Notes: generated by a model from the letters alone, not told the origin. A DNA stretch of 64,000 nt from Candidatus Poribacteria bacterium (GCA_965222225.1 CBDCTK010000002.1:2272001-2336000); one strand, 5' to 3'; numbered from the stretch's first letter, positions 5,461 to 64,000 are shown. Made by a program: numbers and translations.

Positions 5461-5583
5461 ATGTTGACCAAGCGTTTGTACATGCTCGCGGGAGCATTGC
5501 GGGTTATCTGCGGGATTTTAATTTCCAACACTATGGGATTTTCAGCACACCATGATGTTGTCGTTGACAGAATATACCGATAG
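5461..5583 (+). CDS. Putative 40-aa passenger peptide inside the IS, convergent with the transposase
   Basis: GGAGG RBS; MLTKRLYMLAGALRVICGILISNTMGFSAHHDVVVDRIYR*; TTGCTT..TACAAT upstream; also present in copy 2 (22623..22745, minus strand). Confidence 0.4.
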   Translation: MLTKRLYMLAGALRVICGILISNTMGFSAHHDVVVDRIYR

Positions 5584-47833: not shown

Positions 47834-48673
47834 ATGCACACGCCACGCATTGATGACCGTGATTGGTCCGCATTGAGCCTCGGCGAGCGTATCCGCCAAA
47901 TTGAGGTCGAAGGCTACCTACTATTGCCGGATCTCCTAACACCCGAACATGTCGCCCGGTTAAAGACAGAAACCGCGAAACTGAAAACACGTCCTGTCGA
48001 TTACAGCGTCCACCAGCAGGGCTGCCCCGACATTCAATTCATCGGTGGCGCAATTACTGAGTTGGCTGCGCATCCTCCCACCCTCGCCTTTTTGCGAGAG
48101 CTTTTCGGCGATGAGGTCATTGTAATGTCGTATGGATACGCGCGTTCCGAGCCGGGACACCCGGGAATCAGTCTCCATACCGACGGACAGCCCTACGGCT
48201 CTGCGATATTCGGCTATGGGGGCAGTGTTCCCGCCATGGTTCGGGTGCTGTACTACTTGGACGATCTTACCACGGAAGTCTCGCCATTCCGGGTCGTGCC
48301 CCGATCTCACCTCTCCCTACACGCGGACGGCAACCCGTACAAGCGTTACGAGTCCCATCCCGAAGAGGTAATGGTTCCCGCGAAGGCTGGCTCCGCGGTG
48401 CTAATCAATCACAAGGTCTTCCACGGCAATTTCCCCAACATCGGCGACAGGGCGCGTAGGATGTTGGCGATAGCCTATCGCCCGGCGTGGGCAGGCCCCA
48501 TCAAAGAGGTATCCACTTGGGATGAGTCGGAGGTGGCGCAATTGCCCGACAACTTACGCCCCTTGTATGGAGATTGTAACACTCGACATGCGGATTTCCA
48601 CGGCGGAAATAAACCACCCAACATGGCGCGTGAAGCGCTAGGCTTGAATCCGAGCCGCTGGGAACGCATGTAA
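47834..48673 (+). CDS. Phytanoyl-CoA dioxygenase (PhyH) family Fe/2OG dioxygenase
   Basis: AGGAG RBS; EGYLLLPD, LHTD, VPRSH, VFHG..N..R. Confidence 0.88.
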   Translation: MHTPRIDDRDWSALSLGERIRQIEVEGYLLLPDLLTPEHVARLKTETAKLKTRPVDYSVHQQGCPDIQFIGGAITELAAHPPTLAFLRELFGDEVIVMSYGYARSEPGHPGISLHTDGQPYGSAIFGYGGSVPAMVRVLYYLDDLTTEVSPFRVVPRSHLSLHADGNPYKRYESHPEEVMVPAKAGSAVLINHKVFHGNFPNIGDRARRMLAIAYRPAWAGPIKEVSTWDESEVAQLPDNLRPLYGDCNTRHADFHGGNKPPNMAREALGLNPSRWERM

Positions 48674-48875
48674 AGCCCAAATACGACTTTCGCAAATACG
48701 TTGAAACAAGATAAAATCATGCACTCATTTCAAGAGGAAGTGCGAAGGTGATGCCTCGAAACCGAGATTTTTCTTCAAAACTCGGTTTCTTTTGCAGGCT
48801 GTCTTGGTCTCAAGAACCCAAAATGCGTAAGTCTTACCAAATTCACATTGACGCCAGAATATTGAGGAGCACAAC

Positions 48876-49655
48876 ATGAAACTTATTCTCGTAGGCTGCG
48901 AGTATTCCGGAAAGACGACGTTGCAACTGTTGATTTCCGCATGGCTGCAGCGCATCACCGGTTCGCATCGTCCATTTTTCCATGATCACTTTGGTCTGCC
49001 TTCGGGCGAACGTCCGCCGATTAACTCTCAATACCCCGTGGTGATTCAAGAAGAGGTGATGGCGCTGAGTCCCAAACTCAAGGAGATGTTCCAGCGCTAC
49101 GTGATTGAATATCACCTTGGCTCCTCCTTTTATGAATATCCCGACCACGGCTTGGTAGGCTTCCACATTGAGGAAGCGGTGTACGCACCGTTATACTATG
49201 GTTACGGTGGCCCCGGCGAGTATGCCGATCGGCGCGTGCTCGCCCGATGGATTGAGGCAGACATCATGGAAAAGGCGCCCGAGACCGTGCTCGTACTGCT
49301 TAAAGCGTCGGCAGAGGTCATTGCGAAACGAATGCGCGAAAACCCGCACCCGAAAGGACTTCTGCAAGAACAAGATATCGAACACGTCCTCCGCCGATTT
49401 GAGGAGGAATACAACAGTTCGCTCATTCGGAAGCGGTTCGTTCTAGATACCAGCGAGGCGACGATAGACGATACATTCTCTGAATTCGTGACCACCATAC
49501 AACTGCATCTGACAGACGACGATCGGTTGCGAATCTTGGGTGGGGCGACTCCCACCCGGCGCGCCGCGGTAGATGCGGACATCCGGTACTTTCGGCGTGA
49601 GGATTTGCGTCGCATTCTATCGATTGGCTCCCCTTCAAAACAAGGGGACGGATAA
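48876..49655 (+). CDS. P-loop NMP-kinase-like protein, paralog 2
   Basis: LILVGCEYSGKTT; shares FHDHF and LVGFHIEEAVYAPLYY with 46981. Confidence 0.75.
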   Translation: MKLILVGCEYSGKTTLQLLISAWLQRITGSHRPFFHDHFGLPSGERPPINSQYPVVIQEEVMALSPKLKEMFQRYVIEYHLGSSFYEYPDHGLVGFHIEEAVYAPLYYGYGGPGEYADRRVLARWIEADIMEKAPETVLVLLKASAEVIAKRMRENPHPKGLLQEQDIEHVLRRFEEEYNSSLIRKRFVLDTSEATIDDTFSEFVTTIQLHLTDDDRLRILGGATPTRRAAVDADIRYFRREDLRRILSIGSPSKQGDG

Positions 49656-49749
49656 CGTGGGTTCGAAAATTGAAGAACGGCACTATTTCAGAATAGCTGG
49701 TTAACGAACACTCTGAACTACGCCAACTGAATGTTGGGACACCGCGAAC

Positions 49750-51309
49750 ATGACAGAACAAACGAAAGACGAGGATAAATCCCAAGCGCAACTCATCAAT
49801 GAATTGCAACTCATCCGCTGGCGCGTGGGGAAATTTGAACAAGACGAACTCCGGTACAAGCAGTTCTTGGAGGAATACGAGGAGACGGTGACGGAGCATT
49901 TCGACATCTATTACCATTCCCACGACATGGTTGTTTCTGTCGATATGCAGACGGAAAAAGTCCTCCAGTGTAACAAGGCTGTGATTGAAACATTGGGCTA
50001 CGGCAGAGCGGAGATTGTTGGACATCCCGTTTTTCAGTTGTATCATCAAGACTATGTCGAAGATGCGAAGGAACTGTTTCGTGTTATCACGGAGACCGGT
50101 GAAATACGCGACGCCGAACAGACGTTGTGGAAAAGGGATGGGGGCAAAATCAGCGTGAGTTTGAATGCCACAAGCATCCGCAATGAAAACGAGAATCCAA
50201 CTTCGATGCTATTTGATTGGCGCAACATCACCCGGCGTGCGGTGGAAATCGGCGATTTACGCTCCGAAAATCGCCAACTCAAGGAGCATCTGCGTTCCAA
50301 CAGACCCGAACATCCCGAAGTGTTTTCCGACATTGTTACCCAAGATCCGGCGATGTACTCAATTTTTCACCAAGTGGAATCCATCGCAGTCACCGGACAG
50401 CCTGTATTGATAACGGGGGAAACGGGGGTTGGCAAGGAGAAGATTGCGGAGGCTATCCACCAACTGAGCGGGAGATTAGGGGAATTTGTCCCGGTCAATA
50501 TCGCCGGACTTGATGACCTGATGTTTTCGGACACCTTTTTTGGTCACAGAAGGGGTGCATTCACCGGCGCCGATTCGGCGCGCCACGGCTTGATTGAACA
50601 AGCGTCGGGCGGCACGCTATTCCTTGATGAGATTGGTGACCTCGGTATGGAATCACAAACGAAGCTCCTACGCTTTTTACAGGATGGAGAATACCGTCAT
50701 CTGGGTGAAGACGCCCCAATTGGAAGCAACGTTAGGATCGTTGCGGCAACCAATCAAACAATTGAATCGCTCACGGGAAGTGGGAACTTTCGCAGCAACC
50801 TCTACTATCGCCTCGAAACCCATCATATTCATCTGCCTCCGCTGCGTGAGCGCAAGGGGGACATTCCTTTGCTCGTATCCCATTTCCTCAAACGAGCCGC
50901 CGAAAGGCTCGGAAAGAAAATACCCGTCCCACCACCGGAACTCTTTACGTTGCTTTCGACCTACCACTTCCCCGGAAACATCAGGGAGCTTGAGGGGATG
51001 GTGAATGATGCCGTTAGCGGGCACGAAGGCGGCGTACTCTCCACCGAACCCTTCCGCCGGAAAATTGACGAGCACACTTCTGTTTCCCCCAGAGATGGGG
51101 CGCTTAAAGTTGGCGCGGTTACGTTCTCGGATACCCTGTCTTTGCTGCAGGAGCTCCCGGCGCTGAAAGAAATTCAAGACCTGGTGATTGCCGAAGCTCT
51201 CCAGCGCGCAGACGGCAATCAAACGATTGCGGCTCGACTCTTGGGCATGTCAAAACAGGCGTTGAACAATCGTTTAAACCGTGCGCGAAATTCAACGAAC
51301 GGAGGCTGA
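49750..51309 (+). CDS. PAS-domain sigma54-dependent transcriptional activator (Fis HTH)
   Basis: PAS; GETGVGKE; GAFTGA; LFLDEIGD; PGNIREL; [11 protein letters not shown]. Confidence 0.93.
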
Positions 51310-51388
51310 AACGGTGTTTGCTTTTCCAAGCCACTCTTTTCTCTTTGATTCTTCTGTCTTTGCCTCGCAACTGCCGCGCCCAAAAGAG

Positions 51389-51502
51389 GTCAACATTTGT
51401 GAATTTGTCCACTTTTGTTTACATTTGCCCAAGCCCTTAGATGGTAAGGGTTCAAACGCCTCTTGAGCCGAGTTTTCCCGAATTACGTCAACAAACGTTG
51501 AC
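51389..51502. promoter_or_regulatory. Three GTCAAC-N4-GTTGAC-like sites, putative activator UAS
   Basis: GTCAACatttGTGAAT (51389), GTCCACttttGTTTAC (51407), GTCAACaaacGTTGAC (51487), about 115-230 bp upstream of the sigma54 site. Confidence 0.6.
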
Positions 51503-51616
51503 TGCCTTTGTACTTCGCTCATCTACTTCTCCTCTCCAGCGCGAAAAGCCCCTGAACCCCCACTGTACCTAGGCGCAGCGCCTTCACCAACGCCAAATTG
51601 ATGCCCGTTTTCGCTT

Positions 51617-51633
51617 TTGGCATAGGGCTTGCT
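51617..51633 (+). promoter_or_regulatory. Sigma54 (-24/-12) promoter
   Basis: TTGGCATAGGGCTTGCT with GG at 51619-20 and GC at 51631-32, canonical spacing. Confidence 0.8.
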
Positions 51634-51767
51634 GTAATACATCAACGAAACGTGAGTCGATAGCCGTTCCACGATAAGCGAACGGTTATCGCAAGCGAGA
51701 GGAGCATTCGGTTTCCTCCGCGATTCAACCTATAACCAGTATCATTGAGACGAAAGGATAGGGAAAC

Positions 51768-52535
51768 ATGTCTTCCGTCAAGAAACGCCGGTTATGCATC
51801 ATCGCTTTGGTTGCTGCGGTTTGCGTTTCTCTAGGCACAGTCCTGATGATTCGGGCAAGCGCACCTGTTGAATCCAAGACAGTTTACCTCTTGCCGGAGC
51901 CTAATCCGGCGCGCGCCGAAATTCTCAAGCGTGCTTTGCAACCGCCAAAACGCGCTTACACATCGAAGGCGTCTAATAAAGCGGTAACGACGGAGGACAC
52001 AACTGACGAGAACCTTGAAGTCGACAGCGGCGAGTCATCAAGCCAAGAAAGCGATTTTGAGGATGAAGACCTCGAATCCATGCTCGCGGCACTCGACGAG
52101 GAAACCGTCGAACGGAACAGCGATTTCCCGCCGGTTCCCGACGATTTTCCGTTTACGCCGGTCTGGCTACGCCGCCCTGGATATAAAAAAGGGGACATGC
52201 CTAACCACGAGCTAATATACCGTGTGTTGATAAAACTCTGGAATCAGGGAGATCGTGGGTTTCAAGACGGTATTTTCAGTAACGCCGATGCTAAGGTCTA
52301 TCCTATTTATCCAGATGTGCTGTATGTCCAATGGGACGATACAGAGGTTACTGACGAATGGGGAAATTCCCGGAATGTCAGGTATATCGTAACCTCCACT
52401 GGTACTCACAAGCGAGATTTTGAGCTAGAGGATTTCATCACTGGCGCATGGAGAACCAAGTATCCTGACACTAAAATTGTCGCGTACGATGATGCCGGAT
52501 ATGACCCCTACACGTTTCTCACTGAAGACGATTAA
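51768..52535 (+). CDS. Hypothetical membrane-anchored protein with an acidic linker
   Basis: N-terminal TM, D/E-rich spacer, C-terminal globular domain. Confidence 0.75.
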   Translation: MSSVKKRRLCIIALVAAVCVSLGTVLMIRASAPVESKTVYLLPEPNPARAEILKRALQPPKRAYTSKASNKAVTTEDTTDENLEVDSGESSSQESDFEDEDLESMLAALDEETVERNSDFPPVPDDFPFTPVWLRRPGYKKGDMPNHELIYRVLIKLWNQGDRGFQDGIFSNADAKVYPIYPDVLYVQWDDTEVTDEWGNSRNVRYIVTSTGTHKRDFELEDFITGAWRTKYPDTKIVAYDDAGYDPYTFLTEDD

Positions 52536-52561
52536 CATCTTTTAACAGAAGGAGAAATATC

Positions 52562-52930
52562 ATGAAAAAAATCACGCTGTTCGCTATTCCAGCCATATTG
52601 CTGACCTTCACAATCGTGAAAATCGCATATTCATGGAGCATTTACCAAGGAGCAGGATTCACAAATAGCGGTAGTGCGCCTAGGACGTATGCAGACGCTT
52701 ATTCCTCTACTTACGGCCTTACTGATGGTGCGTGGGAGGTGTATGCAAAAGTAAATCACCAGGGGCCCAAGCGTAGTGGAAGTTTTGCTCAGGGTGGCGC
52801 CGTCTTTACTGCCCATAAACATGTGGACAATGCTGACCTACCTGCTTTTGCCTATTCTAAGGTGGAGGGATGGCCCACCAACGGCGGCGATTATGTAGAT
52901 ATCGACGATGATGCACATTATAATCCCTAA
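52562..52930 (+). CDS. Small secreted beta-rich protein
   Basis: AAGGAG RBS; signal peptide ending AYS; G/A/Y/S-rich. Confidence 0.75.
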   Translation: MKKITLFAIPAILLTFTIVKIAYSWSIYQGAGFTNSGSAPRTYADAYSSTYGLTDGAWEVYAKVNHQGPKRSGSFAQGGAVFTAHKHVDNADLPAFAYSKVEGWPTNGGDYVDIDDDAHYNP

Positions 52931-52944
52931 GGATTGCCTTTGTT

Positions 52945-52984
52945 CTCTATTAAACGCCTTGGCGTATCGAGGCGTTTAATAGAG
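52945..52984 (+). terminator. 15-bp-stem hairpin after the small secreted protein
   Basis: CTCTATTAAACGCCT-N10-AGGCGTTTAATAGAG; no long U tract, so it may be a stabiliser or attenuator. Confidence 0.6.
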
Positions 52985-53008
52985 GGTATTAGACCTTGGA
53001 GACAACAA

Positions 53009-53995
53009 ATGTTTACGCTTACAACTCCTCGCTATTTTACGCTAGTTGCTGGCTTTGCTGTTATCCTATTGTCTTTAGGATGCAGTGACGAACCGGTCGA
53101 CAACATCAGAGACCCATCCCCCCCGGGAAGTACCGACGCCCCCTCCACGATTTACTTCCCCATGTCTACCGGTAACCGCTGGGTTTACCGAAATCCCGAC
53201 GGCTCCGAATGGGCGCGCGAGGTCGCCCAGTCGGAAATTATTGAGCACGATTCCTACTATTCTTTCACCTATAATCCGCCACTAGCAGGGGAGCATCCCG
53301 ATTTTATCAAATCGCCTACCTATGTCGTTGCACCAGACGGCATTTTCCTCCTAAACAAGAAAAACGACATAAACGACGCTGTTTGGCAAACTGTTCTGCT
53401 TAGCCAAGGCGATTTCTCGGGCTGGTCCAGAGGGCACAAATTCAGTAACGGCGTTTGGAGCATACGAAGACAGCATGACGACATTTTAGTCTACCTTTTT
53501 TATTCCCAAATACGCGTCACAGAGCACAGTGATTTTACTCTGCTGCATTTCCCGCCCGATGACCCCCAGCGGAGAAAAGTAATTCATATGACGATAACTG
53601 GAAACGAAAACCTTAACCCTGAAGCTTACGTCCACGGTTTTGAAGCCAAAGTGTGTATATGGGGAAATACGTCTTTCGAGCCCGTGGTAACGACGTCCAT
53701 AGGCGGATTCGAGAACTGCCTGAAAATTGAATGCGACGTCGAGACAACGCCTGTCAAAACGCTGGTGTACAAACCAGGTGAGTTACGGGCCAACAAAACT
53801 GCAGAAGCAAACAACGCGTTCCTAGAGCTTTTAGAAGATGAGCTTAACAGCGAACTAACAAAGCTTCTCCCGAGTCTAATGCAAACCCTGAATTTGCAAA
53901 CGATGTGGCTCGCCCCAGGTGTCGGTCCCGTCAAAATCGAAACTCCTAACGGCATCGCCGAATTGATTGACTACGACATCAAGCCAGCACAGTAA
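53009..53995 (+). CDS. Putative lipoprotein
   Basis: GGAG RBS; lipobox LSLGC; YFPMSTGNRWVY; WLAPGVGPVK. Confidence 0.75.
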   Translation: MFTLTTPRYFTLVAGFAVILLSLGCSDEPVDNIRDPSPPGSTDAPSTIYFPMSTGNRWVYRNPDGSEWAREVAQSEIIEHDSYYSFTYNPPLAGEHPDFIKSPTYVVAPDGIFLLNKKNDINDAVWQTVLLSQGDFSGWSRGHKFSNGVWSIRRQHDDILVYLFYSQIRVTEHSDFTLLHFPPDDPQRRKVIHMTITGNENLNPEAYVHGFEAKVCIWGNTSFEPVVTTSIGGFENCLKIECDVETTPVKTLVYKPGELRANKTAEANNAFLELLEDELNSELTKLLPSLMQTLNLQTMWLAPGVGPVKIETPNGIAELIDYDIKPAQ

Positions 53996-54039
53996 GCTAC
54001 TTTACCAGTAGAAACCATAGAAGTCTTCCCTACCCCCTT

Positions 54040-54250
54040 TCACTTGCCATATTTGAACCGCCCAATAGCATTTGTTCTGCGAGTTCGGCACGGGTATAAC
54101 GTACAAGTATCTTAGGGTCACGCCACCGCCCGGCAGTTTGCATATCAACAAGCGTAGCCCCAGTTTGCGCAACAACATCGCCGAACCAACCCGCAGGGAG
54201 TGTCCCGAGATAAACCCACCAATACCCGATGCCATACCTGTTCGCGCCCA
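54040..54250 (-). pseudogene. Tyrosine recombinase 3' remnant C
   Basis: FISGHSLRVGSA / AQTGATLVDMQTAGRWRDPK..YTRAELAE / AIGRFKYGK* across two frameshifts. Confidence 0.85.
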
Positions 54251-54445
54251 CGTTCCATTCTTTTGTACTTCATATAACGTCTCGGACGCTCGTCCATCAT
54301 TTGACCAAACAGCATGAATCAAGCAGTTACAGTGAGATTTCTGTTGATTAACGAGTGCAAAACAGATAAAATGGCTTTCGTCTATCTCCAAAATGAGCAT
54401 CATACCTCGAAGCGATAATGTACCAGATTCACGATAAACCCAACC

Positions 54446-55876
54446 ATGGCAGCAAAACCGCCAAACATCCTGTGGATATGCACCGATCAGCAACGCCATG
54501 ACACTATCGGTGCCTTAGGAAATCCTCACATCCGTACACCGGCGCTTGATAGCCTCGTCGCCGAGGGCGTCGCCTTTACTTCAGCCTACTGCCAGACACC
54601 GATCTGTACGCCCAGCCGCGCCTCTTTCCTGACCGGTCGATACCCCAGCCGCCTGGGCGTCAATAGCAACAGCAATGCCCGATTTCCCGATGACGCACGG
54701 TTAGTCACCCGCACGTTGGCGGATGCCGGTTACGACTGCGGCATGGCGGGCAAACTTCACCTATCCACAGTTACGCGCCGTGTAGAACCACGCCCCGACG
54801 ATGGCTATCGCGTCTTTAGGTGGTCGCATCACCCCCGCCCGGAAACCTACTGGGAAGTTCAACACCACGCCTATCACCAGTGGCTTGAGGAGCAGGGCGT
54901 GGACTGGTTCGATTACTATCCGACTCGACCTTGGGCGGAAAAGGCACATGCGTCGGTTGGCGCCGGCATTGAGACCCAATACCACCAGACAACCTGGTGC
55001 GCAAACGAAGCTATAGCCTTCATGTCCGAACCGCGCGAAGGTCCCTGGCTGATGAGTGTCAACCCGTTCGACCCGCATCCGCAGGGAGCGTTCTTCAGCG
55101 CGCCGCAAGAATATCTCGACAAGTATAACCCTTCCTTGCTGCCCGGTCCCCACTTTCGAGAGAGCGACTTGGCAAACCAAGCCCGGCTGCGGGACGTCGA
55201 CTTCCAATCCACCGCAACGCGGCCGGAAGAATACCCGACGCGCGAGATGCAGGCGGCGTATTACGCCTCGATCGAGCTGATAGACGCGCAAGTAGGGCGG
55301 ATGCTTGAAGCGCTAGAGCGCAGTGGACAACGCGAGAACACCGTCGTCATCTTCATGAGCGATCATGGGGAGATGTTGGGCGACCACGGGTTGACGCGCA
55401 AGGGTTGCCGTTTCTATGAAGGGTTGGTGCATGTTCCGCTCATCATTTCGTCTCCAAGCCGGTTCCGGCAGGGCGTCCGAAGCGGCGCGCTGGTGGAGTT
55501 GATTGATATCGTGCCTACCTTGCTCCAACTCGCGGGACTTGACGTGCCGGTCGACGTACAGGGGTGGTCGTTATTGCCAATTTTGACAGGGGAATCCGCC
55601 GCGGATAGTCACCGCGATGTCGTGCGTTGCGAATACCGCGACGCCCTTGACATGCCCGGCAAGAGCCATGCCGACATGATCTTCGACGGGCGCCACAAGC
55701 TGGTCGTTTACCACGGCACCGGGCTGGGCGAACTTTACGATCTGAAGGAAGACCCGCACGAGTTTGACAACCTGTGGGACAGCGTGGAAGCGGCAAAAAT
55801 CAAACAGGAATTGCTTATCCGCTTATTTGATGACGTGGTGTTGGCGGCTAATGAAGGCCAACCCCGAATCGCATAA
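54446..55876 (+). CDS. Formylglycine-dependent sulfatase
   Basis: PNILWICTDQ, CTPSRASFLTG, GKLH, SDHGE. Confidence 0.93.
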   Translation: MAAKPPNILWICTDQQRHDTIGALGNPHIRTPALDSLVAEGVAFTSAYCQTPICTPSRASFLTGRYPSRLGVNSNSNARFPDDARLVTRTLADAGYDCGMAGKLHLSTVTRRVEPRPDDGYRVFRWSHHPRPETYWEVQHHAYHQWLEEQGVDWFDYYPTRPWAEKAHASVGAGIETQYHQTTWCANEAIAFMSEPREGPWLMSVNPFDPHPQGAFFSAPQEYLDKYNPSLLPGPHFRESDLANQARLRDVDFQSTATRPEEYPTREMQAAYYASIELIDAQVGRMLEALERSGQRENTVVIFMSDHGEMLGDHGLTRKGCRFYEGLVHVPLIISSPSRFRQGVRSGALVELIDIVPTLLQLAGLDVPVDVQGWSLLPILTGESAADSHRDVVRCEYRDALDMPGKSHADMIFDGRHKLVVYHGTGLGELYDLKEDPHEFDNLWDSVEAAKIKQELLIRLFDDVVLAANEGQPRIA

Positions 55877-55898
55877 TCTTTACTCTACTCGTACATAT

Positions 55899-56022
55899 GT
55901 AGGGTGCGCACCGCGCACCAGCCTTTGAAAACGCCCGTCAGCAGGTTTGGATCAAGCGACCGATTAGGGAGTTGAATCTTCTATCGCCCTCTTTATTCAG
56001 TCGATTGATCGATAGAGATCCC
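55899..56022. repeat. GTAG REP (55899-55919) plus a 37-nt element (55950-56022) carrying an inverted second copy (55974-56010)
   Basis: GATCAAGCGACCGATTAGGGAGTT | GAATCTTCTATCGCCCTCTTTATTCAGTCGATTGATC | GATAGAGATCCC. Confidence 0.85.
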
Positions 56023-56155
56023 CTTGCCCCGCTGACGTTGCGCGGAGACAAGGCTTCTAACTCCGCTCCACACAAGATTCTTTACCCTGTCCACGTAATC
56101 ATTGTCATTGCACCTGAATTTTAGAGACGTGGTATAACAACAATGGAGAAACAGC

Positions 56156-57019
56156 ATGACCCAACCCCTGCGTATTGTATCAATCGGCGCGCATCCGGCT
56201 GATATATTCGATCAATCCGGCGGCACTATGGCTCACCATACGAGTCGAGGCGATTATGTCGCCTGCGTCGTATTGACTCATGGCGCTCGCGTGCACGACG
56301 CCGTCATTAGCGACGCCATGTTTCATCGTGAGGAGATTCCGGATCAAGCCGAATTGATGAAGTTAATGGAAGATCGATCGGATGTCAAGGCAGAGGAAGT
56401 GCGCGCCGCATGCAATATCGTGGGAGTCAAGGACATCTACTTCTTTGGAGCGGACGATGCGGTACTCCTTGTCACGGAGGACATGGTCAGACGCTTGGCG
56501 AGACTGTTACGCGAGTTGCGCCCCGATGTCGTTTTGACCCATTTCCCCAAAGAAAACGACGCGCTCACCAACGCGCACGCCATCGCAGGGCAAATCGTCA
56601 TGCACGCCATTTCCCTCGCTGGCAGCGTGGATCCCGGCGATCGGCATCCCCCCCACCGCGTGGCGGCAGTCTTTTTCTTTGGCTCGGGCGCGGCTGCAGT
56701 ACCCGCCAACGTATGGCGATCGGAGGGCGGGTTTTACAACGATGTATTCATTGACATCACGGATGTTGTGGACAAGAAACTCGCGGCATTGGACTGCTTG
56801 GTGAGTCAGGGTTATAGCGGAGCTTACGCCCGCAAGCGGATTGAAACCAGTGACGGCGCGTTCGGCGTAGCGGGCGGATGCGCTTACGCGGAAGGTTTCA
56901 TCTCCATGAAGGCTGAGACCCACTACTATCTGCCGGTTACGGAACATGCGCTTGAAACAGCTCGTTCATCCGACCACGAGCTGATAAAGCAACGATCCTA
57001 TCGAATCCCGGTTGATTGA
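56156..57019 (+). CDS. PIG-L/LmbE-family deacetylase
   Basis: IGAHPAD, RPDVVLTH, FIDITDVVDKKLAAL, YAEGF. Confidence 0.88.
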   Translation: MTQPLRIVSIGAHPADIFDQSGGTMAHHTSRGDYVACVVLTHGARVHDAVISDAMFHREEIPDQAELMKLMEDRSDVKAEEVRAACNIVGVKDIYFFGADDAVLLVTEDMVRRLARLLRELRPDVVLTHFPKENDALTNAHAIAGQIVMHAISLAGSVDPGDRHPPHRVAAVFFFGSGAAAVPANVWRSEGGFYNDVFIDITDVVDKKLAALDCLVSQGYSGAYARKRIETSDGAFGVAGGCAYAEGFISMKAETHYYLPVTEHALETARSSDHELIKQRSYRIPVD

Positions 57020-57211
57020 AGATTCTTTGATATAGTAATTAGCATTCATATTCGCACATATATGAATTGTAAGAAACTTCCAAGAATAAACTTACACTTC
57101 TATTTAGATCTGACCCGCTCCTGCCGGATTAACAAATCCAGCAAATCTTTATCTAGCTATTCAGCTTCCATTCTTTCGCTCTGGAGGAGTTCAAAGGAAT
57201 GAATATTGACC

Positions 57212-57383
57212 GATCAACTGAGTGGATAACGAAGGCGATAGTAAATCTTGATAGCGAATCCCGATAGAGATCCCCGCCGCTTTCACTTCCCATAGAAGAA
57301 CCGCGCCTTATTTTTTGAGTTAAGATCCGGAGCGATCCCACGAACTAGCAACTGAGCGATTAGCGAAGGCGGTAGAAGATACC
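57212..57383 (+). repeat. 37-nt element with two stacked extra tails (57212-57274) and a degenerate copy (57346-57383)
   Basis: GATCAACTGAGTGGATAACGAAGGCGATAGTAAATCTT | GATAGCGAATCCC | GATAGAGATCCC. Confidence 0.75.
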
Positions 57384-57454
57384 GCACTATGAGCAGATCC
57401 GCAAATCGCAAAAATCTAAACTTTTGTGTTTTTTCCCTTCAAGGAGATTTATTG

Positions 57455-57622
57455 ATGACAGTACGCACTTTGTTTTGGGTTATTCTCGAAATCGGTGTTG
57501 ACATTCTTCTTTTGTACATCGTGCTTTCCAACAGCACCGCGTGGTTCCGAAAAGTCGTCAAATGGATTATAGCAGGAATCATCGTTTTGGACATCCTCGG
57601 CATCATCGACTACACTGTCTGA
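57455..57622 (+). CDS. 55-aa two-TM membrane protein
   Basis: AAGGAG RBS; two hydrophobic helices. Confidence 0.55.
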   Translation: MTVRTLFWVILEIGVDILLLYIVLSNSTAWFRKVVKWIIAGIIVLDILGIIDYTV

Positions 57623-57865
57623 AGATTCCTCAAGGGGCTTATAGGATGATTCCATGGACTCGGGCCTTACCAGAGAGAAACAGAGTGAGTCGCGCGAGTG
57701 CTGCCGACAGGTGAAAGTTCCGTCGGTCTATTTCCCGCCACATTTGCAATTCCATTGCCATGGCCGGGGCGTCTCCGCGAACTTCAATGGGAGAGCGCAG
57801 TTCAGCTGTGTCGTCATGGCAAGCCGCCGGGAGAGTTCGTCAACCTGACCGTCATCACTGGCTGC

Positions 57866-58707
57866 CTAGTCATCAGTATCACGCTGGTGTCTTTCCGCAT
57901 CACGCTCAACTTGCTCCCGATTTCGATAATCTCCAGGAAAGTATGTCCATACAGGGAGCGCTGGCAACCGCAGAGAGATAGAAGTCCAATCAGAATAAGA
58001 ATAACGCGCAAAAAACGAGATATCAACAAGCCGCTTATCCGGCGGGGCGGGGTCAAAGGACATCACATATCCTATCGGACGACATGCAATCTCACAAAGG
58101 CCGCGACTTTTCTCGAAAGTAGCATTTGCGATGCTTGTCATATCCTCCAACGTACTGCAATCTATTTCATCTGGATTCATCTTCAACATTCCCGCTCCAG
58201 CTATGTAGCGGCTACGCACACCCCATTAAAAAAAGCATAGATCCGAAGATCCGGATTTAAGTACCGTTCATTTTTGTAAAGCACGAACTTGACCAAATCT
58301 GGATGGTTATACGAAAACTGTGTGTCATTAATAGAAAAAAACATACACACGATTTGCTTAATCACCCGCAGAGGAAAGATATGAAAAGTGTAGTACAGCG
58401 ATGGTGCGCCTTGTGCGTTCTCAAGCATTTCCATTCCTTGACGCGCCCAAACGGCAAAAGCATCCCCATACCACTTCCCTGTATCATTATTGCATGGTTC
58501 GCAGAGACTATGTGCGCCAACCCCATTCTGCGACATAGTCCATTTTGGTTCTAAGTAGCGGTCGGGGTCTTCGCCGATTAGTTTAAATACTTCTTTGTAT
58601 ACCGTCCGGCAGTTGTTAAACGCCGCCGCAGGGGGCACATGATCAAACGATAATTTTGTACAATCGCGACAAATGCGACACGTGCCAAAGACTGGCTTGC
58701 GAGCCAT
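57866..58707 (-). pseudogene. HNH-like endonuclease, frameshifted near 58225
   Basis: CRIC..DHVPP..LCEPCNN; C-terminal half continues in the adjacent frame (57866..58219); AGGAGG RBS. Confidence 0.7.
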
Positions 58708-58850
58708 TCAACCTCCTAGACTTCATGAATCCAACGAGGAAGTTAAGGTGCGCCGGGGGATATTTGTAAAACCGTAGACTTGCCATTCAACTACAGCTTT
58801 CTTTATTCTATCCCACATTCCTCGTTCCACCGTCATTCATTTACTATAAA

Positions 58851-58970
58851 AGCACCCCGCTCCGCCAGTTCCGCCGGCGCATAATGCGCCGGCATCTTCG
58901 GATCTGCCCACCTGCCCGCTGTCTGCATATCCACAACTGACGCCCCGGCACGTGCCAGCGACACTGCTGA
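58851..58970 (-). pseudogene. Tyrosine recombinase 3' remnant B
   Basis: SAVSLARAGASVVDMQTAGRWADPKMPAHYAPAELAERGA. Confidence 0.88.
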
Positions 58971-59146
58971 CCGGGCCACCCATAATCGGCTACAACACCC
59001 GTATCGCTTTCGACAAGGGCAAGGGGGTCTACGGTTGCCAATCCCTCCAGCAGCCCTTATCGCACGTTAGACCGGTGAATAAAGCGGTAAAGCGAGTCCC
59101 ATATTTTACAACCGCATCATCGGGAACTATACCGCGACACCACGCT

Positions 59147-59788
59147 TCACCTATCTTCCGCTTTCAGGTGGCGGCCGTATTCCTCTTTCCATCGCTTCCA
59201 CGGCCCATGATCGTAAATTGCACCATTATCATCGACCCGCCACCAGTACACCTTCCCGTTGGCGTCCGCAAAAATTGCAACAGTCTGATAGCGTGATTGA
59301 GGAAGATTCGGAGGACGTACTGCTCGCTGATACGCTTCAAGTTCGACGATGTCGCGGATTGCCGACAACACGCCACTTCGGGTTTGCGGAGCACGCTTGA
59401 TTTCATATTCACCAAAGGGGCGTGGAGACACAATCCATCTGTCGCTTTCCCTCTCCCGGGGGAATAGCAAGTCTGGGTGAGGCAGTGTAGCCGGCGACGG
59501 CGGTCGTGAATGATACGTCTTAGCCCAGACGTAAACTGTGCCGCCGTTGCCGTCGGACACGGCGCGCGTATGTGCTCCACTCTCTTTGATGACTTCCGAA
59601 ATATGACAATCAATCCATAAATTCATAATACTCCAAGGCGCGGGCGGCGGGTGGATACCGGCGGTCGTTTCAGCCGGTTGAAATACGATTGCTGAAGGTG
59701 ATTGAACCTCCCCATAATAAGGTGTACAGCCCAATGATACACACACGGAAATGAACGCTACTATTAACGTCAATTTTATTCCAATCAT
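59147..59788 (-). CDS. Putative lipoprotein
   Basis: AAGGAG RBS; MIGIKLTLIVAFISVCVSLGC lipobox. Confidence 0.7.
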   Translation of the reverse strand: MIGIKLTLIVAFISVCVSLGCTPYYGEVQSPSAIVFQPAETTAGIHPPPAPWSIMNLWIDCHISEVIKESGAHTRAVSDGNGGTVYVWAKTYHSRPPSPATLPHPDLLFPRERESDRWIVSPRPFGEYEIKRAPQTRSGVLSAIRDIVELEAYQRAVRPPNLPQSRYQTVAIFADANGKVYWWRVDDNGAIYDHGPWKRWKEEYGRHLKAEDR

Positions 59789-59972
59789 CCCAATGTTCTC
59801 CTTATTCCTAACAGTAGACATCTTTCCAAAATAATCTCGGAGCCCGATGGCATCCACCTCTGCCCTAATTGGCTTGGGAATGACATCAATCGTCGGAACA
59901 CCGATGCCACCCGACTTCTGTCCACCACATGGATTAATTAGGAAAGATGTCCAGTGTTGTCTTCAACATCGC

Positions 59973-60341
59973 TTACTTGCCATCTTTGAACCAAGCGATA
60001 GCGCCCCGTTCCGCCAGCTCCGCCCGTGCATAATGCGCCGGCATCTTCGGATCTGACCACCTACCCGCCGTTTGCATATCCACCACCGACGCCCCCGCCT
60101 GAGCCAGTGACACCGCAGACCCCACACGAAGCGAGTGTCCAGAGATGAATCCCTCCACGCCCGCCTCGGCAGCCCAGCGCTTAATCGCGTTCCGCGCTCC
60201 GTTCACCGAAAGCCTATCTGGTGTGATATGCTTCTGCCAGCCCACTCTCCGGAACAGAGCCCCCTCCTCTATGCCCCCAGCCTTACAATATCTCCGGATA
60301 GCCTTGTGAGTGGGCGCTCCGACATACAGCGTAGCCCCCTC
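59973..60341 (-). pseudogene. Tyrosine recombinase 3' remnant A (122 codons)
   Basis: EGATLYV..GALFRRV..AIKRWAAEAGVEGFISGHSLRVGSA..MPAHYARAELAERGAIAWFKDGK*. Confidence 0.9.
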
Positions 60342-60449
60342 ACTTCAGCACGATACTTGTTCCTTTCCCAAGTGTTAACCACGCCATTCCCATATCCATT
60401 CACGCTTCCTCATTTTCGTCCAAGCTGTGATTTCTACTATCGCCATTTG

Positions 60450-61052
60450 TTAGTCTTCGCTCCGTATAAACTTTGATGTGAGAAAACACACATCCTCCTC
60501 TGTCAGCTTTGGAAATTCCCTGCGAATTTCTTCTTTACTGATATCTCGGAATGACGGCTGACGTTCGCGTAGTCTTCGTATACAGTATCTGTCCTCCTCA
60601 AGTCGTGGTCTGACGAGCTCCAGCACACGTTCGTAACTTTTCACCTCCGTATAATACCATTTAGGCTTAATCCGCTTCTTTTCCATGTAATACAAAGAAA
60701 AGTAGCAAGCGACGCCTTCTTCCAAATTGGTAGCGTCTTCAATGCGTACCGGTGCCAGCAAATGAACCGTTTCATGTGCCATTTGAAAACATGCCTTCGA
60801 CATCTTCTGCGCAGCCGATGAGCTAAGCCTAATTATGATTTTCTTGCCTTCAAACCCCTCCGGATACCTGATTTCGGGATCATCGCCCGCGAATTCAATG
60901 CCAAGAATTGTGTACGAACAGTCCCGCCGTTCGAACAGGTTCTCTGCCATTTCAAGCATGAGGCCCAGTCGCCGTCGCAACTTTTGTGCATATTTACCAT
61001 TGGTTCCAGCAGGGTGTGCAACAAACAGTTCCTCAATGTTTAACTTTGGCAT
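60450..61052 (-). CDS. Putative zinc metallopeptidase-like protein (HExxH)
   Basis: FQMAHETVHLL..NLEEGVA; start MPKLNIEEL after GAGG. Confidence 0.65.
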   Translation of the reverse strand: MPKLNIEELFVAHPAGTNGKYAQKLRRRLGLMLEMAENLFERRDCSYTILGIEFAGDDPEIRYPEGFEGKKIIIRLSSSAAQKMSKACFQMAHETVHLLAPVRIEDATNLEEGVACYFSLYYMEKKRIKPKWYYTEVKSYERVLELVRPRLEEDRYCIRRLRERQPSFRDISKEEIRREFPKLTEEDVCFLTSKFIRSED

Positions 61053-61479
61053 AGATTCGTTTCCTCTTCCAGTGTTTTGAGTTTCGTGGGCATGTGAGTC
61101 CACGGGACACTTATTGCGCATAACTGTAATTAACACGCCTTTCAAATCAAAGGAAATTAACGATGAATATCAACTTGTTGTTAAGCCACAGGGTCAAGTG
61201 TTTATTTTTCGTTGTGCCAATGCTCCTGTCCATTGGTGTTTTCGGCGTTTTTTCGAGGCGTTCTGGTGGTCTTACCCTCAAGCAACCTCAAACTCTTGAA
61301 TTTCAGCCCATTGCTTTCGCTTTCATGTGAAATTATGCTATCATCATCGGGTGCTTTTGTCCGTTTAAGGCAATCAAACGCCAATCTACACCAAAACACG
61401 CTTTACTGTTGCAAATCACTTTCACGCGCACTGCGGCAATCCTATCCCTTGCCGTCGATGTCTGAACTGTTACAGAAGA

Positions 61480-61662
61480 ATGTTTATGTCCGCTCAAATC
61501 ATATTTTCGGCAGATGATCCAGCCGCGTTGATCAAACTCAACTCCGAGGGCTGGAGTTTACGGCGACTCGCCGCGCGTTTCGGCGTATCGCACATGACGA
61601 TTCAACGACTTCTCCGTCGCCGGTTCCCGTACTTCAATCTTTATCGCGGCGATATCGTCTAA
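61480..61662 (+). CDS. Small HTH protein (possible remnant)
   Basis: EGWSLRRLAARFGVSHMTIQRLL. Confidence 0.45.
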   Translation: MFMSAQIIFSADDPAALIKLNSEGWSLRRLAARFGVSHMTIQRLLRRRFPYFNLYRGDIV

Positions 61663-61832
61663 ATCGCCGACCTTGCGAACAAAAGCGCACTGGTGGTAAT
61701 CGACCGCATTCCCGGACGATGCCTTGATGTACCCCTGGACGCCCTCACCGTATCGAAGAACAACGACGCCACGAGTATCAATACCAGATGAATCGCCACG
61801 CTCAACAGAAAAGTATTCATGCGATTTCTCAT
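61659..61832 (-). CDS. 57-aa single-TM ORF coupled to the upstream gene
   Basis: ATGA overlap at 61829-61832; MRNRMNTFLLSVAIHLVLILVASLFF; possibly frameshifted. Confidence 0.4.
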   Translation of the reverse strand: MRNRMNTFLLSVAIHLVLILVASLFFDTVRASRGTSRHRPGMRSITTSALLFARSAI

Positions 61833-62158
61833 TTGATTCTCCCTTCACCTAGAGTTGCCAACCGATACCTGTTCTTGTCCCAGGTGCGTACCGCGCCGTT
61901 CCCGTATTCATTCACGCTCATTTCCGCCCCTGGTTCGCCATCTTTGCCTTTCACGCTAACCAACCCGCCCATTGTGCCGGGGAATATCCACACCGCACCA
62001 TCCGGATTCTCCACGACTAACTCTGTGCAGGTTATCTTCCCAAAGCTAACATCCGATTGGCTTTGCGCTCCCACTGGCGAGAACGAACCCACCACCATCG
62101 TTAGAATTGCCCCGACAACACCACCAATCACCGCCGCATAGATCAATTCTCGTTTCAT
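61829..62158 (-). CDS. Secreted Gly-rich beta-strand protein, paralog 2 (109 aa)
   Basis: GGAGG RBS; MKRELIYAAVIGGVVGAILTMVVGSFSPVGAQSQSD..FGKITC. Confidence 0.75.
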   Translation of the reverse strand: MKRELIYAAVIGGVVGAILTMVVGSFSPVGAQSQSDVSFGKITCTELVVENPDGAVWIFPGTMGGLVSVKGKDGEPGAEMSVNEYGNGAVRTWDKNRYRLATLGEGRIK

Positions 62159-62178
62159 CTGTTTTCCTCCTTTTTTGC

Positions 62179-63135
62179 CTACTTCCCATCTTTGAACCGG
62201 GCGATTGCGCCCCGTTCCGCCAGTTCTGCCTTTGCATAATGCGCCGGCATACTCGGTGATTTCCAACGCCCCGCCGTCTGCATGTCCACGACTGACGCCC
62301 CGGCTTGCGCCAGCGACACCGCCGAACCGACCCGGAGTGAGTGTCCGCTGATGAATCCTTCCACGCCCGCTTCGGCAGCCCAACGTTTTATCGCCTCGCG
62401 TACCCCCTTCGTTGACAGTCTGCCTTTGCCCAGATGTTGACGGAATCTCACTCTCCGGAACAGAGCTCCGCGCTCAATCCCCGACTTCCGCAGGTAACGT
62501 TTAATCACACGCCTTGTGGATTCGCAGATATACAACGCCTCGCCCTTGCCTTCCTGATCCGTCTTACTGGCTTTCAAGGGTAGCACACTCCCTTTGATGT
62601 CCCCGACATTGACCGACACAACCTCCGAGATACGCAACAGACAATCGCTCATGAGGCTGATCATGGCAGAATCCCTCAACCCCGCAAGCGTCCGGCTCGC
62701 TTCGGCGAATGAGCAGACCCGATCCACTTCCTTCCATGTCAACCCGTCAACTTGACCGCGTCCCCTGTCCTTGCCCTCGCGTCGAATCCCCGCCAGTGTT
62801 CGCTCCGTGATTGCGCCAACCACCTCTTTTTGATTCCGGTTCTTTGCGCTCCACTTGATCGCGGCAACCGCTTGACTGATTGTGGCGGGCGATTTGCCCT
62901 GCCGGTGCAACTGCGTGATATAGTCCGCCAGTACCGCGTCATTCAATCCGTGATTGCCGTTGCCGGCGCTGTCGATACGAAACCCGTTCTCGGCAACCGA
63001 CAGCCACGCCTCAAGTTCTTTGAGCGCCCTTCGGTACGCCTTGTGCGTGTTCTCCGCGACGCCGGCTCTAATCAACTCCTCCGTTTCAATACTGATAGCC
63101 AGTGCGCTATCCTGTCTCACTGCCAACTCATTCAT
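62179..63135 (-). CDS. Cre-like tyrosine recombinase/integrase
   Basis: N-terminal core-binding domain (NTHKAY); LRISE, SKTDQ, GHSLR, GRW, HY catalytic residues all present. Confidence 0.93.
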   Translation of the reverse strand: MNELAVRQDSALAISIETEELIRAGVAENTHKAYRRALKELEAWLSVAENGFRIDSAGNGNHGLNDAVLADYITQLHRQGKSPATISQAVAAIKWSAKNRNQKEVVGAITERTLAGIRREGKDRGRGQVDGLTWKEVDRVCSFAEASRTLAGLRDSAMISLMSDCLLRISEVVSVNVGDIKGSVLPLKASKTDQEGKGEALYICESTRRVIKRYLRKSGIERGALFRRVRFRQHLGKGRLSTKGVREAIKRWAAEAGVEGFISGHSLRVGSAVSLAQAGASVVDMQTAGRWKSPSMPAHYAKAELAERGAIARFKDGK

Positions 63136-63141
63136 GATTCA

Positions 63142-63696
63142 TCACCTAAGGCGTGTCGTTACTCCGTTCTTGTCCCTCGCGCCAACCATTCCACCGTATT
63201 TAGTAATCAACATTAACGCGGATGATTCCCCATCTCCGCCAAACACGCCGACAGCCCCACCGTGTGGATTCGTTTCCATAACCGCACTTCCTCCGTCCTT
63301 GCCACGCACGATAACGCGCCCGCCATGTTCGTCGGTCGTCAAATACACGTTCAACCGCACTACCCCAATGTCGTTGTCGTCGGTTCTACCTACGCCGATA
63401 GAATTACTACCTATAACCGAGACGGATCCTTCGCTACCGTGTATGTCCACCCCGGCTGCTGTCATTTCTGTGCGGAGACTGCCACCTCCTACTATGACGC
63501 CCGTCGAATCTATCACTGTCGTGAGACTAGGCACTCCGTAGCCTCCGACCAGTCGCAAGCGGCGGCAGGTTATCTCGCCGAAGTTACCATCCGATTGGCT
63601 CTGTGCTCCCAGTGGAGAGAACGAGCACACCACCAGCGTTAGAACTGTCCCGACAACACCGCCTATCACTGCATACAACGCCTCTTTCCTTCGCAT
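63142..63696 (-). CDS. Secreted Gly-rich beta-strand protein, paralog 1 (184 aa)
   Basis: AAGGAG RBS; MRRKEALYAVIGGVVGTVLTLVVCSFSPLGAQSQSD..FGEITC; ends 6 bp before the recombinase start. Confidence 0.78.
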   Translation of the reverse strand: MRRKEALYAVIGGVVGTVLTLVVCSFSPLGAQSQSDGNFGEITCRRLRLVGGYGVPSLTTVIDSTGVIVGGGSLRTEMTAAGVDIHGSEGSVSVIGSNSIGVGRTDDNDIGVVRLNVYLTTDEHGGRVIVRGKDGGSAVMETNPHGGAVGVFGGDGESSALMLITKYGGMVGARDKNGVTTRLR

Positions 63697-63876
63697 CGTA
63701 AATCTCCTTTTGAGTTCGCTTCTGAAGCCAACGATTAACTTACTGTCGATAAAATTGGTATTATACACAATGACATAGTGTTATATGAAACTTTCCCTCG
63801 ATAGTATTTCCATTGATAAACCAGCATATTCCCATTATAATACATCATTCCTAATTGTCTAGGGAGGTCATACACC

Positions 63877-64000
63877 ATGCAAAAAACGTCTCAGAAGCAA
63901 ACTTCTCAGCGTCTACCTTCCCGAACCCCTTATCCGAGAATTATCCGAAGTCGGTGAGGCACTCGACCGTGCCATGTCCAATGTCGCGGCAGAGATGATT
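63877..64000 (+). pseudogene. Ribbon-helix-helix (CopG-like) regulator, out of frame at an A6 run; partial
   Basis: GGAGG RBS and ATG. The shifted frame reads KRLRSKLLSVYLPEPLIRELSEVGEALDRAMSNVAAEMI. Confidence 0.5.

Follow-up and report, generated by a model that had tools for sequence, protein, structure and literature searches.

A Cre-like recombinase gene, its 3' relics and a repeat-protein family in Candidatus Poribacteria: a probable stack of decaying modules

The recombinase gene and its relics

The stretch of DNA analysed here (64,000 nt, hereafter the window; coordinates are window positions unless marked as genome) comes from Candidatus Poribacteria, a sponge symbiont. It carries an intact gene for a Cre-like tyrosine recombinase, designated R, three 3'-only fragments of related genes (relics 1–3), genes for a membrane-anchored repeat protein, designated S, and several orphan genes. 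The first-pass annotation of this DNA took the whole segment 54040–63696 for one ordered platform, in which elements recombining within the integrase gene leave 3' scars and stack unrelated genes in an integron-like order. Nine same-genus genomes (G001–G009; this genome is G000), which we take to be tied to sponges from the organism labels of the runs and general knowledge, were compared with the window; this left the fragments in place and dissolved the platform: the segment covers parts of two insertions, islands A and B, split by core genes. Island B probably represents S-R-cargo modules that have stacked up in tandem at a hot spot next to an NAD-dependent epimerase gene and are decaying, accompanied by a stray relic at a second site. 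The features concerned are as follows.

49670..54333, no strand: island A, 4.66-kb insertion; its flanks are 78–1365 nt apart in 9 of 9 same-genus genomes
54072..54229, minus: relic 3, R residues 256–308 with a frame break, at the right end of island A (tblastn)
54446..57019, plus: sulfatase and PIG-L deacetylase genes, conserved core (Pfam; proteins 86–96% identical and gene order kept in 9 of 9 relatives)
57021..~64170 (~170 nt past the window end), no strand: island B, 7.15-kb insertion from PIG-L to the epimerase gene (gap comparison)
57039..57072, no strand: lox-like inverted repeat (13-8-13) right on the border of island B that faces PIG-L (inverted-repeat scan)
57866..58707, minus: Cys-rich orphan gene behind relic 2, frameshifted (compared with a 307-aa homologue)
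58848..58970, minus: relic 2, R residues 271–311 (tblastn, 85% identity, E 9e-15)
59147..59857, minus: orphan lipoprotein-like gene behind relic 1, start 118 nt past the relic stop; no family match
59973..60341, minus: relic 1, R residues 197–318 (tblastn 59976–60341, 73% identity, E 7e-52)
60351..60406, minus: S-gene 3'-end remnant, 56 nt, fused directly upstream of relic 1 (family D4, tblastn)
60450..61145, minus: orphan HExxH-motif gene, putative cargo of the newest module; no family match, single copy in the genome
61829..62158, minus: S_B, second S-family gene, start 20 nt past the R stop
62179..63135, minus: R, intact Cre-like tyrosine recombinase, 318 aa (Pfam, PDB match to Cre)
63142..63696, minus: S_A, membrane-anchored Gly-rich beta-hairpin repeat protein, member of a 24-ORF (open reading frame) family
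63760..63861, minus: two sigma-70-like promoter matches (11/12 and 10/12) upstream of S_A, by consensus match only

Proteins of the window were scanned against the Pfam, NCBIfam and PHROGs libraries. R has the domain PF00589 (E 2.1e-18) with the R..H-x-x-R..(W/H)..Y residues that define the tyrosine recombinase superfamily, and an N-terminal SAM-like domain, PF02899 (both Pfam). Among solved structures P1 Cre is the nearest to it (E 1.4e-12, residues 70–315), and the motifs LLRISE, GHSLRVG, RW and HY of R align onto active-site positions of this enzyme. Thus, R resembles simple recombinases of the Cre type in motifs (LLRI(S/A)E, GHSxRVG, W, Y), in size and in having no arm-binding domain. Unlike Cre, it is encoded on the chromosome in multiple, mostly decayed copies and is coupled to an S gene, and the sole lox-like candidate is the one 13-8-13 repeat at the island edge. 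R does not qualify as a housekeeping XerC or XerD, since the NCBIfam scores are far under the cut-offs (81 bits against 330 for the XerD equivalog and 73 against 335 for XerC) and R is multicopy; a separate Xer-like gene, distant from R (rows of 27–30% identity), is present once per genome. With the XerA/integron-integrase model NF040815 R scored 77 bits at a cut-off of 220, which leaves it outside the IntI-type integrases. Its nearer relatives belong to Candidatus Poribacteria and more distant homologues (40–47% identity) to other phyla. Identity to the closest paralogue is fairly even along the gene (60–87%), and a swapped 3' end is not indicated.

The relics were located by tblastn in the whole genome with the intact R as a query, and DNA repeat families D1 and D2 (75–85% identity) support all three of them. 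As stated in the first-pass annotation, they share the minus strand with R, and the 5' part of the gene is missing from each; the next unrelated feature is about 10, 170 and 100 nt away from relics 1, 2 and 3, respectively. Relic 3 proved to be shorter than the 54040–54250 assigned to it earlier, and is made of two pieces, 54176–54229 (residues 256–273, 78% identity) and 54072–54173 (residues 275–308, 59% identity). Relic 1 keeps an open frame of 123 codons that still matches PF00589 (E 1.6e-8, Pfam). A 21-nt palindrome at the codons of the catalytic tyrosine is perfect in relic 2 only and arises largely because the A-H-Y-A codons force it; the relic boundaries do not coincide with it.

The suggestion that the relics derive from sister elements and not from the intact gene was also supported. 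The DPK of the relics, as opposed to SPS of the intact gene, is visible in the translations, and relic 1 is 86–90% identical to a pseudogene at genome 4357 kb (over nt 589–810) versus 54% to the intact R (over nt 589–750). Relic 1 evidently belongs to another R lineage, that of the 4357-kb pseudogene, and because it is nearer to the latter than to the intact R, one can assume that the modules were separate arrivals, not copies of the intact gene's end. The 56-nt remnant at 60351–60406, which is 80% identical to 61863–61918 (DNA repeat family D4), bears on the same question: given an S remnant directly upstream and a different R lineage, relic 1 is best taken for an internally deleted whole module and not for a crossover scar.

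The two insertion sites in related genomes

Site B is the interval between PIG-L and the epimerase gene. Its length in the ten genomes is as follows.

G005 55 nt; G006 64 nt; G007 82 nt; G009 82 nt (homologous spacers)
G002 541 nt; G004 1.0 kb; G008 1.8 kb
G001 4.3 kb; G003 8.5 kb; this genome 7.15 kb

Thus, among the relatives the gap is 55–82 nt in four of the nine, 541 nt in a fifth and 1.0–8.5 kb in the other four, i.e. one and the same site is occupied in some genomes and empty in others, as tandem accretion requires. On a local tree built from three genes flanking the site occupied and empty genomes pair as sisters (G000/G005, G003/G006 and G001/G009). S genes and R relics are found in the islands of G001 and G003 too, and both genomes possess a second, displaced epimerase 3' end (L098:2782–2934 in G003 and L099:6701–6865 in G001), comprising the last 145–165 nt (51–55 codons). 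These copies start at codon 246–250, are 74% (G001) and 89% (G003) identical to the resident one, and each separates an older S-R part from a newer insert that adjoins the intact gene. Their presence points to a target beside or within the epimerase gene rather than inside the recombinase gene. By analogy with known elements, such displaced tails are the classical signature of successive site-specific integrations at the 3' end of a gene.

Read on the minus strand from the epimerase, island B contains a promoter-like region, S_A, R, S_B, a 60-aa helix-turn-helix (HTH) ORF and the HExxH gene; then the S remnant, relic 1 and the lipoprotein gene; then relic 2, the Cys-rich gene and an AT-rich tail, behind which PIG-L lies. 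The tandem co-oriented accumulation proposed initially holds for this stack, where the intact copy is nearest to the edge and erosion grows outward, but does not extend to relic 3, which is located elsewhere. The Cys-rich gene had been labelled an HNH nuclease, for which Pfam, NCBIfam and PHROGs give no support; it is frameshifted and covers residues 1–161 and 166–280 of its 307-aa homologue in two frames. The same layout, S, an R relic (residues 281–318) and then the Cys-rich gene, occurs on another contig in G004, and base-level alignment of the two relic-plus-gene units (G000 and G004) showed them too diverged to fix the upstream breakpoint. Pieces of the Cys-rich gene tail and of a 77-aa transmembrane ORF persist at site B in G003 and G008 with 85–87% identity. 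Since this value is about that of core-gene divergence, the oldest layer of island B is probably about as old as the genus.

The lox-like repeat 57039–57072 is the only one of its type in island B, with a chance expectation of approximately 0.24 per island (our estimate). No second copy of its arms is present in 48000–66000, the islands of G001, G003, G004 and G008 have no equivalent at the edge facing PIG-L, and a scan for 13-8-13 inverted repeats (up to 2 mismatches) in islands A and B and four other R loci revealed none common to the loci.

Sulfatase and PIG-L, which were counted as cargo of the platform, have the same neighbours in all nine same-genus genomes. In each of these relatives the window block 46.9–49.66 kb is followed by the sulfatase after 78–1365 nt, and a contig from a relative of about 90% likeness (public runs) bridges the empty site A. 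As the two genes are core, relic 3 lies in an insertion separate from that of R and relics 1 and 2. Island A consists of a sigma-54 activator, three orphan genes and relic 3, and its block 49756–53987 occurs elsewhere in G005 and G009, without R.

Several other repeats were registered around the two islands. A perfect inverted repeat with 15-nt arms and a 10-nt loop (52945–52984) overlaps the annotated start (52934) of a lipoprotein-like gene 15 nt past the preceding stop codon at 52930, and may be a regulatory hairpin. Short dispersed repeats at about 48758–48792, 55898–55950 and 57191–57275 have very high summed contig depth and produced false joints in public runs; their copies are also found at the empty sites of relatives, and they look like a genome-wide repeat of the REP (repetitive extragenic palindromic) kind. 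Just to the right of the window, downstream of the epimerase gene (L003:2512–8652), five paralogous genes for TolB-like beta-propeller lipoproteins stand in a row, and their number varies among the relatives.

The S family and the census of R fragments

The stop codon of S_A is 7 nt ahead of the start of R, and the 5' 108 nt of S_B are 84% identical to S_A (DNA repeat family D3). The sigma-70-like matches upstream of S_A are a probable promoter of an S_A-R-S_B operon. In S proteins an N-terminal membrane helix and the conserved motif FGxITC are combined with Gly-rich beta-hairpin repeats in varying number and with a conserved tail, so that head and tail are conserved while the repeat middle is hypervariable. 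An AlphaFold2 model of S_A combines the N-terminal helix with beta hairpins (mean predicted local distance difference test, pLDDT, 65) and has no match in PDB (Foldseek, E up to 0.001). Searches for a function gave no matches in Pfam, NCBIfam and PHROGs, and unnamed clusters only in the ESM Atlas. There are 24 S-family ORFs in this genome; a search of 151 Poribacteria genomes detected the family in 119 of them, at up to 33 matches each, with an expansion in this genus. Judged by sequence, S is a phylum-wide multigene family without known family or fold.

The R family of this genome comprises seven intact genes, four longer pseudogenes and 13 short fragments (BLAST). Intact genes of the window's type are present in two copies, here and at genome 4354 kb, and at every locus of this type (R1) the start of R is within about 20 nt of an S stop. 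Among the 80 loci kept, S adjoins R only in seven Poribacteria loci. R copies with 81% DNA identity adjoin S genes that are too diverged for a DNA match, and G005 carries an insertion of a 5.9-kb S-R-Y-S block at a place that measures 152 nt in this genome. Apparently, R travels with S as a multicopy and frequently decayed module. The other five intact copies (genome C2 460276–461199, 1313887–1314774, 3335643–3336530, 3989323–3990210 and 4161171–4162058) belong to a second subtype, which is 56% identical to the R of the window. A conserved gene of 330–380 aa, other than S and without an assigned function, precedes each of them, a conserved stretch of about 60 nt follows four of the five, and short repeats of a dispersed kind lie on their flanks.

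At genome C2 5496–5502 kb (L001) six S genes form a co-oriented array, in which four short 5' relics of R (49–116 nt) stand right behind S stops; the array is in part a segmental duplication that includes a 5' fragment of a sulfatase gene. At another locus (L002:3895–4557, genome C2 4354895–4355557, minus strand) the end of a 220-aa membrane-protein ORF is formed, in frame, by the final 13 R codons (…AERGAIARFKDGK), and an S gene and an intact R come directly after it. An R gene of another Poribacteria genome is adjoined by an element of about 1.05 kb (L036:10917–12004), which has more than 25 copies here, each about 87.5% identical to it, and is probably an insertion sequence.

If recombination within the gene left 3' scars, an excess of 3'-only fragments with a common breakpoint would be expected, whereas equal numbers and random breakpoints were named in the first-pass annotation itself as a sign of ordinary decay. 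Fragments were counted by a profile search in the ten genomes of the genus with neighbouring pieces grouped by hand; full-length pseudogenes, three internally deleted loci and the distant Xer-like gene were left out. This genome contains five 3'-only and four 5'-only loci, and the other nine 12 and 13, respectively, which gives 17 of each kind; two further loci of each kind in this genome were detected by BLAST alone. The 3' fragments start anywhere between residues 180 and 296, and the 5' fragments end between residues 30 and 131. These sets of breakpoints are not complementary, and the outcome is the one that the first-pass annotation itself set down as refuting its model.

The search for recombination sites gave the following picture. 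Region 49000–64000 has no match to attC or any other Rfam family at E up to 1, and neither tRNA genes nor tandem repeats were found in the scans. Within 400 nt of the seven intact R genes there are seven unrelated inverted repeats without a shared motif. Within 260 nt after 29 R ends three differing perfect palindromes with arms of 9–10 nt were found, versus about 0.3 by chance (our estimate), none of the three in the window. Region 48000–64000 contains five perfect palindromes with arms of at least 8 nt, versus 1.8 in shuffles, and none of them recurs. Behind 15 of 21 R ends (20 relics and the intact gene) a co-oriented ORF of 60 aa or more starts from −23 to +145 nt of the end of the last R codon, and behind 12 of the 21 this ORF reaches 100 aa or more; these counts are uncontrolled. 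Among 11 proteins encoded behind R ends one has a Pfam match.

Possible origins of the stack

Tandem accretion of integrative elements at the 3' end of a gene is a known process, resulting in arrays of integrative and conjugative, integrative and mobilizable, and cis-mobilizable elements (ICE, IME and CIME). Site B resembles such arrays in having a hot spot that is occupied or empty, co-oriented elements, an intact recombinase nearest to the target and displaced 3' ends of the target (G001 and G003). Conventional site-specific accretion is therefore our best reading of the mechanism. Each module would consist of S, R and one or a few orphan cargo genes, with at least three modules in island B, all read away from the epimerase. 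The newest, next to the epimerase, would comprise S_A, the intact R, S_B, the short HTH ORF and the HExxH gene; the middle one would be reduced to 56 nt of S, R residues 197–318 and the lipoprotein gene, and the oldest to R residues 271–311, the frameshifted Cys-rich gene and the AT-rich tail. Relic 3 may be all that is left of one more R copy, which stood at a second site on the upstream side of the sulfatase. R, acting in cis or in trans, would integrate circular modules beside or in the epimerase 3' end, so that each newcomer pushes the older modules outward. Redundant older recombinases would then lose their junction-facing 5' halves through ordinary deletion, while the 3' tails may survive because they abut retained downstream cargo genes.

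Some observations do not favour this scheme. The modules are tiny (1–3 kb), unlike ICE, IME and CIME, and have no conjugation or mobilization genes; four putative junctions share not even a 9-mer that could serve as a direct att repeat, no palindrome or motif recurs next to R genes or relics, and the island of this genome contains no displaced epimerase fragment. In four public runs no trustworthy joints of excision or circle formation were found for island B among Logan contigs on 48000–64000, these contigs being too short to show absence; the joints listed, with sides of 21–36 nt, are compatible with paralogues or dispersed repeats. The presence of homologous island pieces at site B in three clades agrees equally well with one ancient island that underwent several clean losses. 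Loss of the 5' part in all three local relics is about a one-in-eight outcome if both kinds of fragments are equally frequent in the genus.

A rival assumption is that no site-specific process took place at all. The locus would then be the product of segmental duplication, of homologous recombination in which conserved parts of paralogous modules pair, and of random deletions, in a genome rich in repeats. Equal numbers of 5'-only and 3'-only relics, scattered breakpoints, the missing att core, the clear segmental duplication with the sulfatase 5' fragment in the S array at 5496–5502 kb and the dispersed multicopy block of island A, which has no link to R elsewhere, are all compatible with it. 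However, the same intergenic site is occupied in about half of the genus and cleanly empty (homologous spacers of 55–82 nt) in sister genomes, the displaced epimerase copies of two genomes start at nearly the same codon, and modules are strictly co-oriented within each island, which makes purely unspecific rearrangement doubtful as the whole explanation. An att site inside the recombinase gene, as assumed at first, is very improbable. The geometry of island B, where an intact gene, cargo, relic, cargo and relic follow each other in one orientation, fits it, as do the unrelated 220-aa ORF fused in frame to the final 13 R codons, with an S gene behind it, and two diverged copies of the Cys-rich cargo, each behind an R relic that starts near residue 270–281. 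The nearest precedent is provided by archaeal SSV-type ('suicidal') integrases, in which attP lies within the int ORF (PMC7253208), and integrase fragments border the integrated DNA. There, complementary N- and C-terminal fragments with one fixed point flank the element, whereas here the breakpoints scatter, there are no flanking pairs and the host is bacterial; an SSV-type split was ruled out, since 3' starts at residues 180–296 and 5' ends at 30–131 are not complementary. Moreover, crossover of two whole genes should yield two hybrid whole genes and not scars, 5'-only fragments are as common as 3'-only ones, an S remnant stands upstream of relic 1, relic 3 belongs to another insertion, sulfatase and PIG-L are core genes, and no attC-like RNA or DNA family was found. 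With integrons the locus shares a tyrosine recombinase gene behind which small, unrelated and for the most part orphan genes stand in a row in one orientation, but the score of R is far from that of integron integrases, and recombinase relics rather than attC sites separate the 'cassettes'. The census, core genes, S remnant, junctions and epimerase tails taken together are against integron-like stacking by means of a site in the integrase gene.

Two other possibilities ascribe a function to the surviving parts. The R tail (last 40–370 nt) may be kept as a 5' adaptor, i.e. a promoter, leader or recombination handle, for the downstream gene, so that units of tail and cargo are selected and perhaps moved. 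The frequent close ORFs behind R ends, the diversity and orphan nature of the cargo and the open frame of relic 1 agree with this idea, but closely spaced co-oriented neighbours are common in bacteria, a close ORF is missing at 6 of the 21 ends, relic tails contain no promoter-like match, and homology among the copies breaks off precisely with the stop codon, which is what a plain coding gene should show; we consider such an adaptor unlikely. It is quite unlikely that R is a domesticated recombinase varying S surface proteins in the manner of Mycoplasma vsa/vpma-Xer systems, with S arrays as switching products. The conserved head and tail around a hypervariable middle, S arrays adjoining R, the wide distribution of S with its expansion in this genus, and similar R copies beside strongly diverged S genes would suit this role. 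But vsa/vpma loci have inverted gene copies with a shared 5' recombination site, while S genes of the arrays are co-oriented, so that recombination would delete and not invert them; every S gene has its own start codon, and in the seven alignable 5' regions (7 of 18) conservation begins at the ribosome-binding site and start codon, with nothing upstream conserved across all seven. In addition, most R copies adjoining S are dead, and whole S-R blocks are present or absent between species. A low probability is also given to Poribacteria-specific cassette stacking, where the R tail and perhaps the head and tail of S would serve as handles, and a Cre-like enzyme supplied in trans would insert orphan genes downstream of an S-R operon with its promoter, as in an integron with gene ends instead of attC. 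This idea is retained because orphan genes are found directly behind R tails at many loci, one ORF is fused in frame, and presence or absence at the hot spot is clean.

If accretion at the epimerase hot spot is the true origin of the stack, the locus as such is an ordinary decaying genomic island, and a row of gene relics retaining the same end can arise without any special mechanism. The module itself, a Cre-like recombinase coupled to a phylum-wide surface-repeat protein, appears so far undescribed (a literature search gave no paper pairing Poribacteria with a tyrosine recombinase), and would spread and stack in genomes of sponge symbionts. The R family would then represent a set of natural relatives of Cre, and the S-R module may help to explain the gain and loss of orphan genes in uncultured symbionts.

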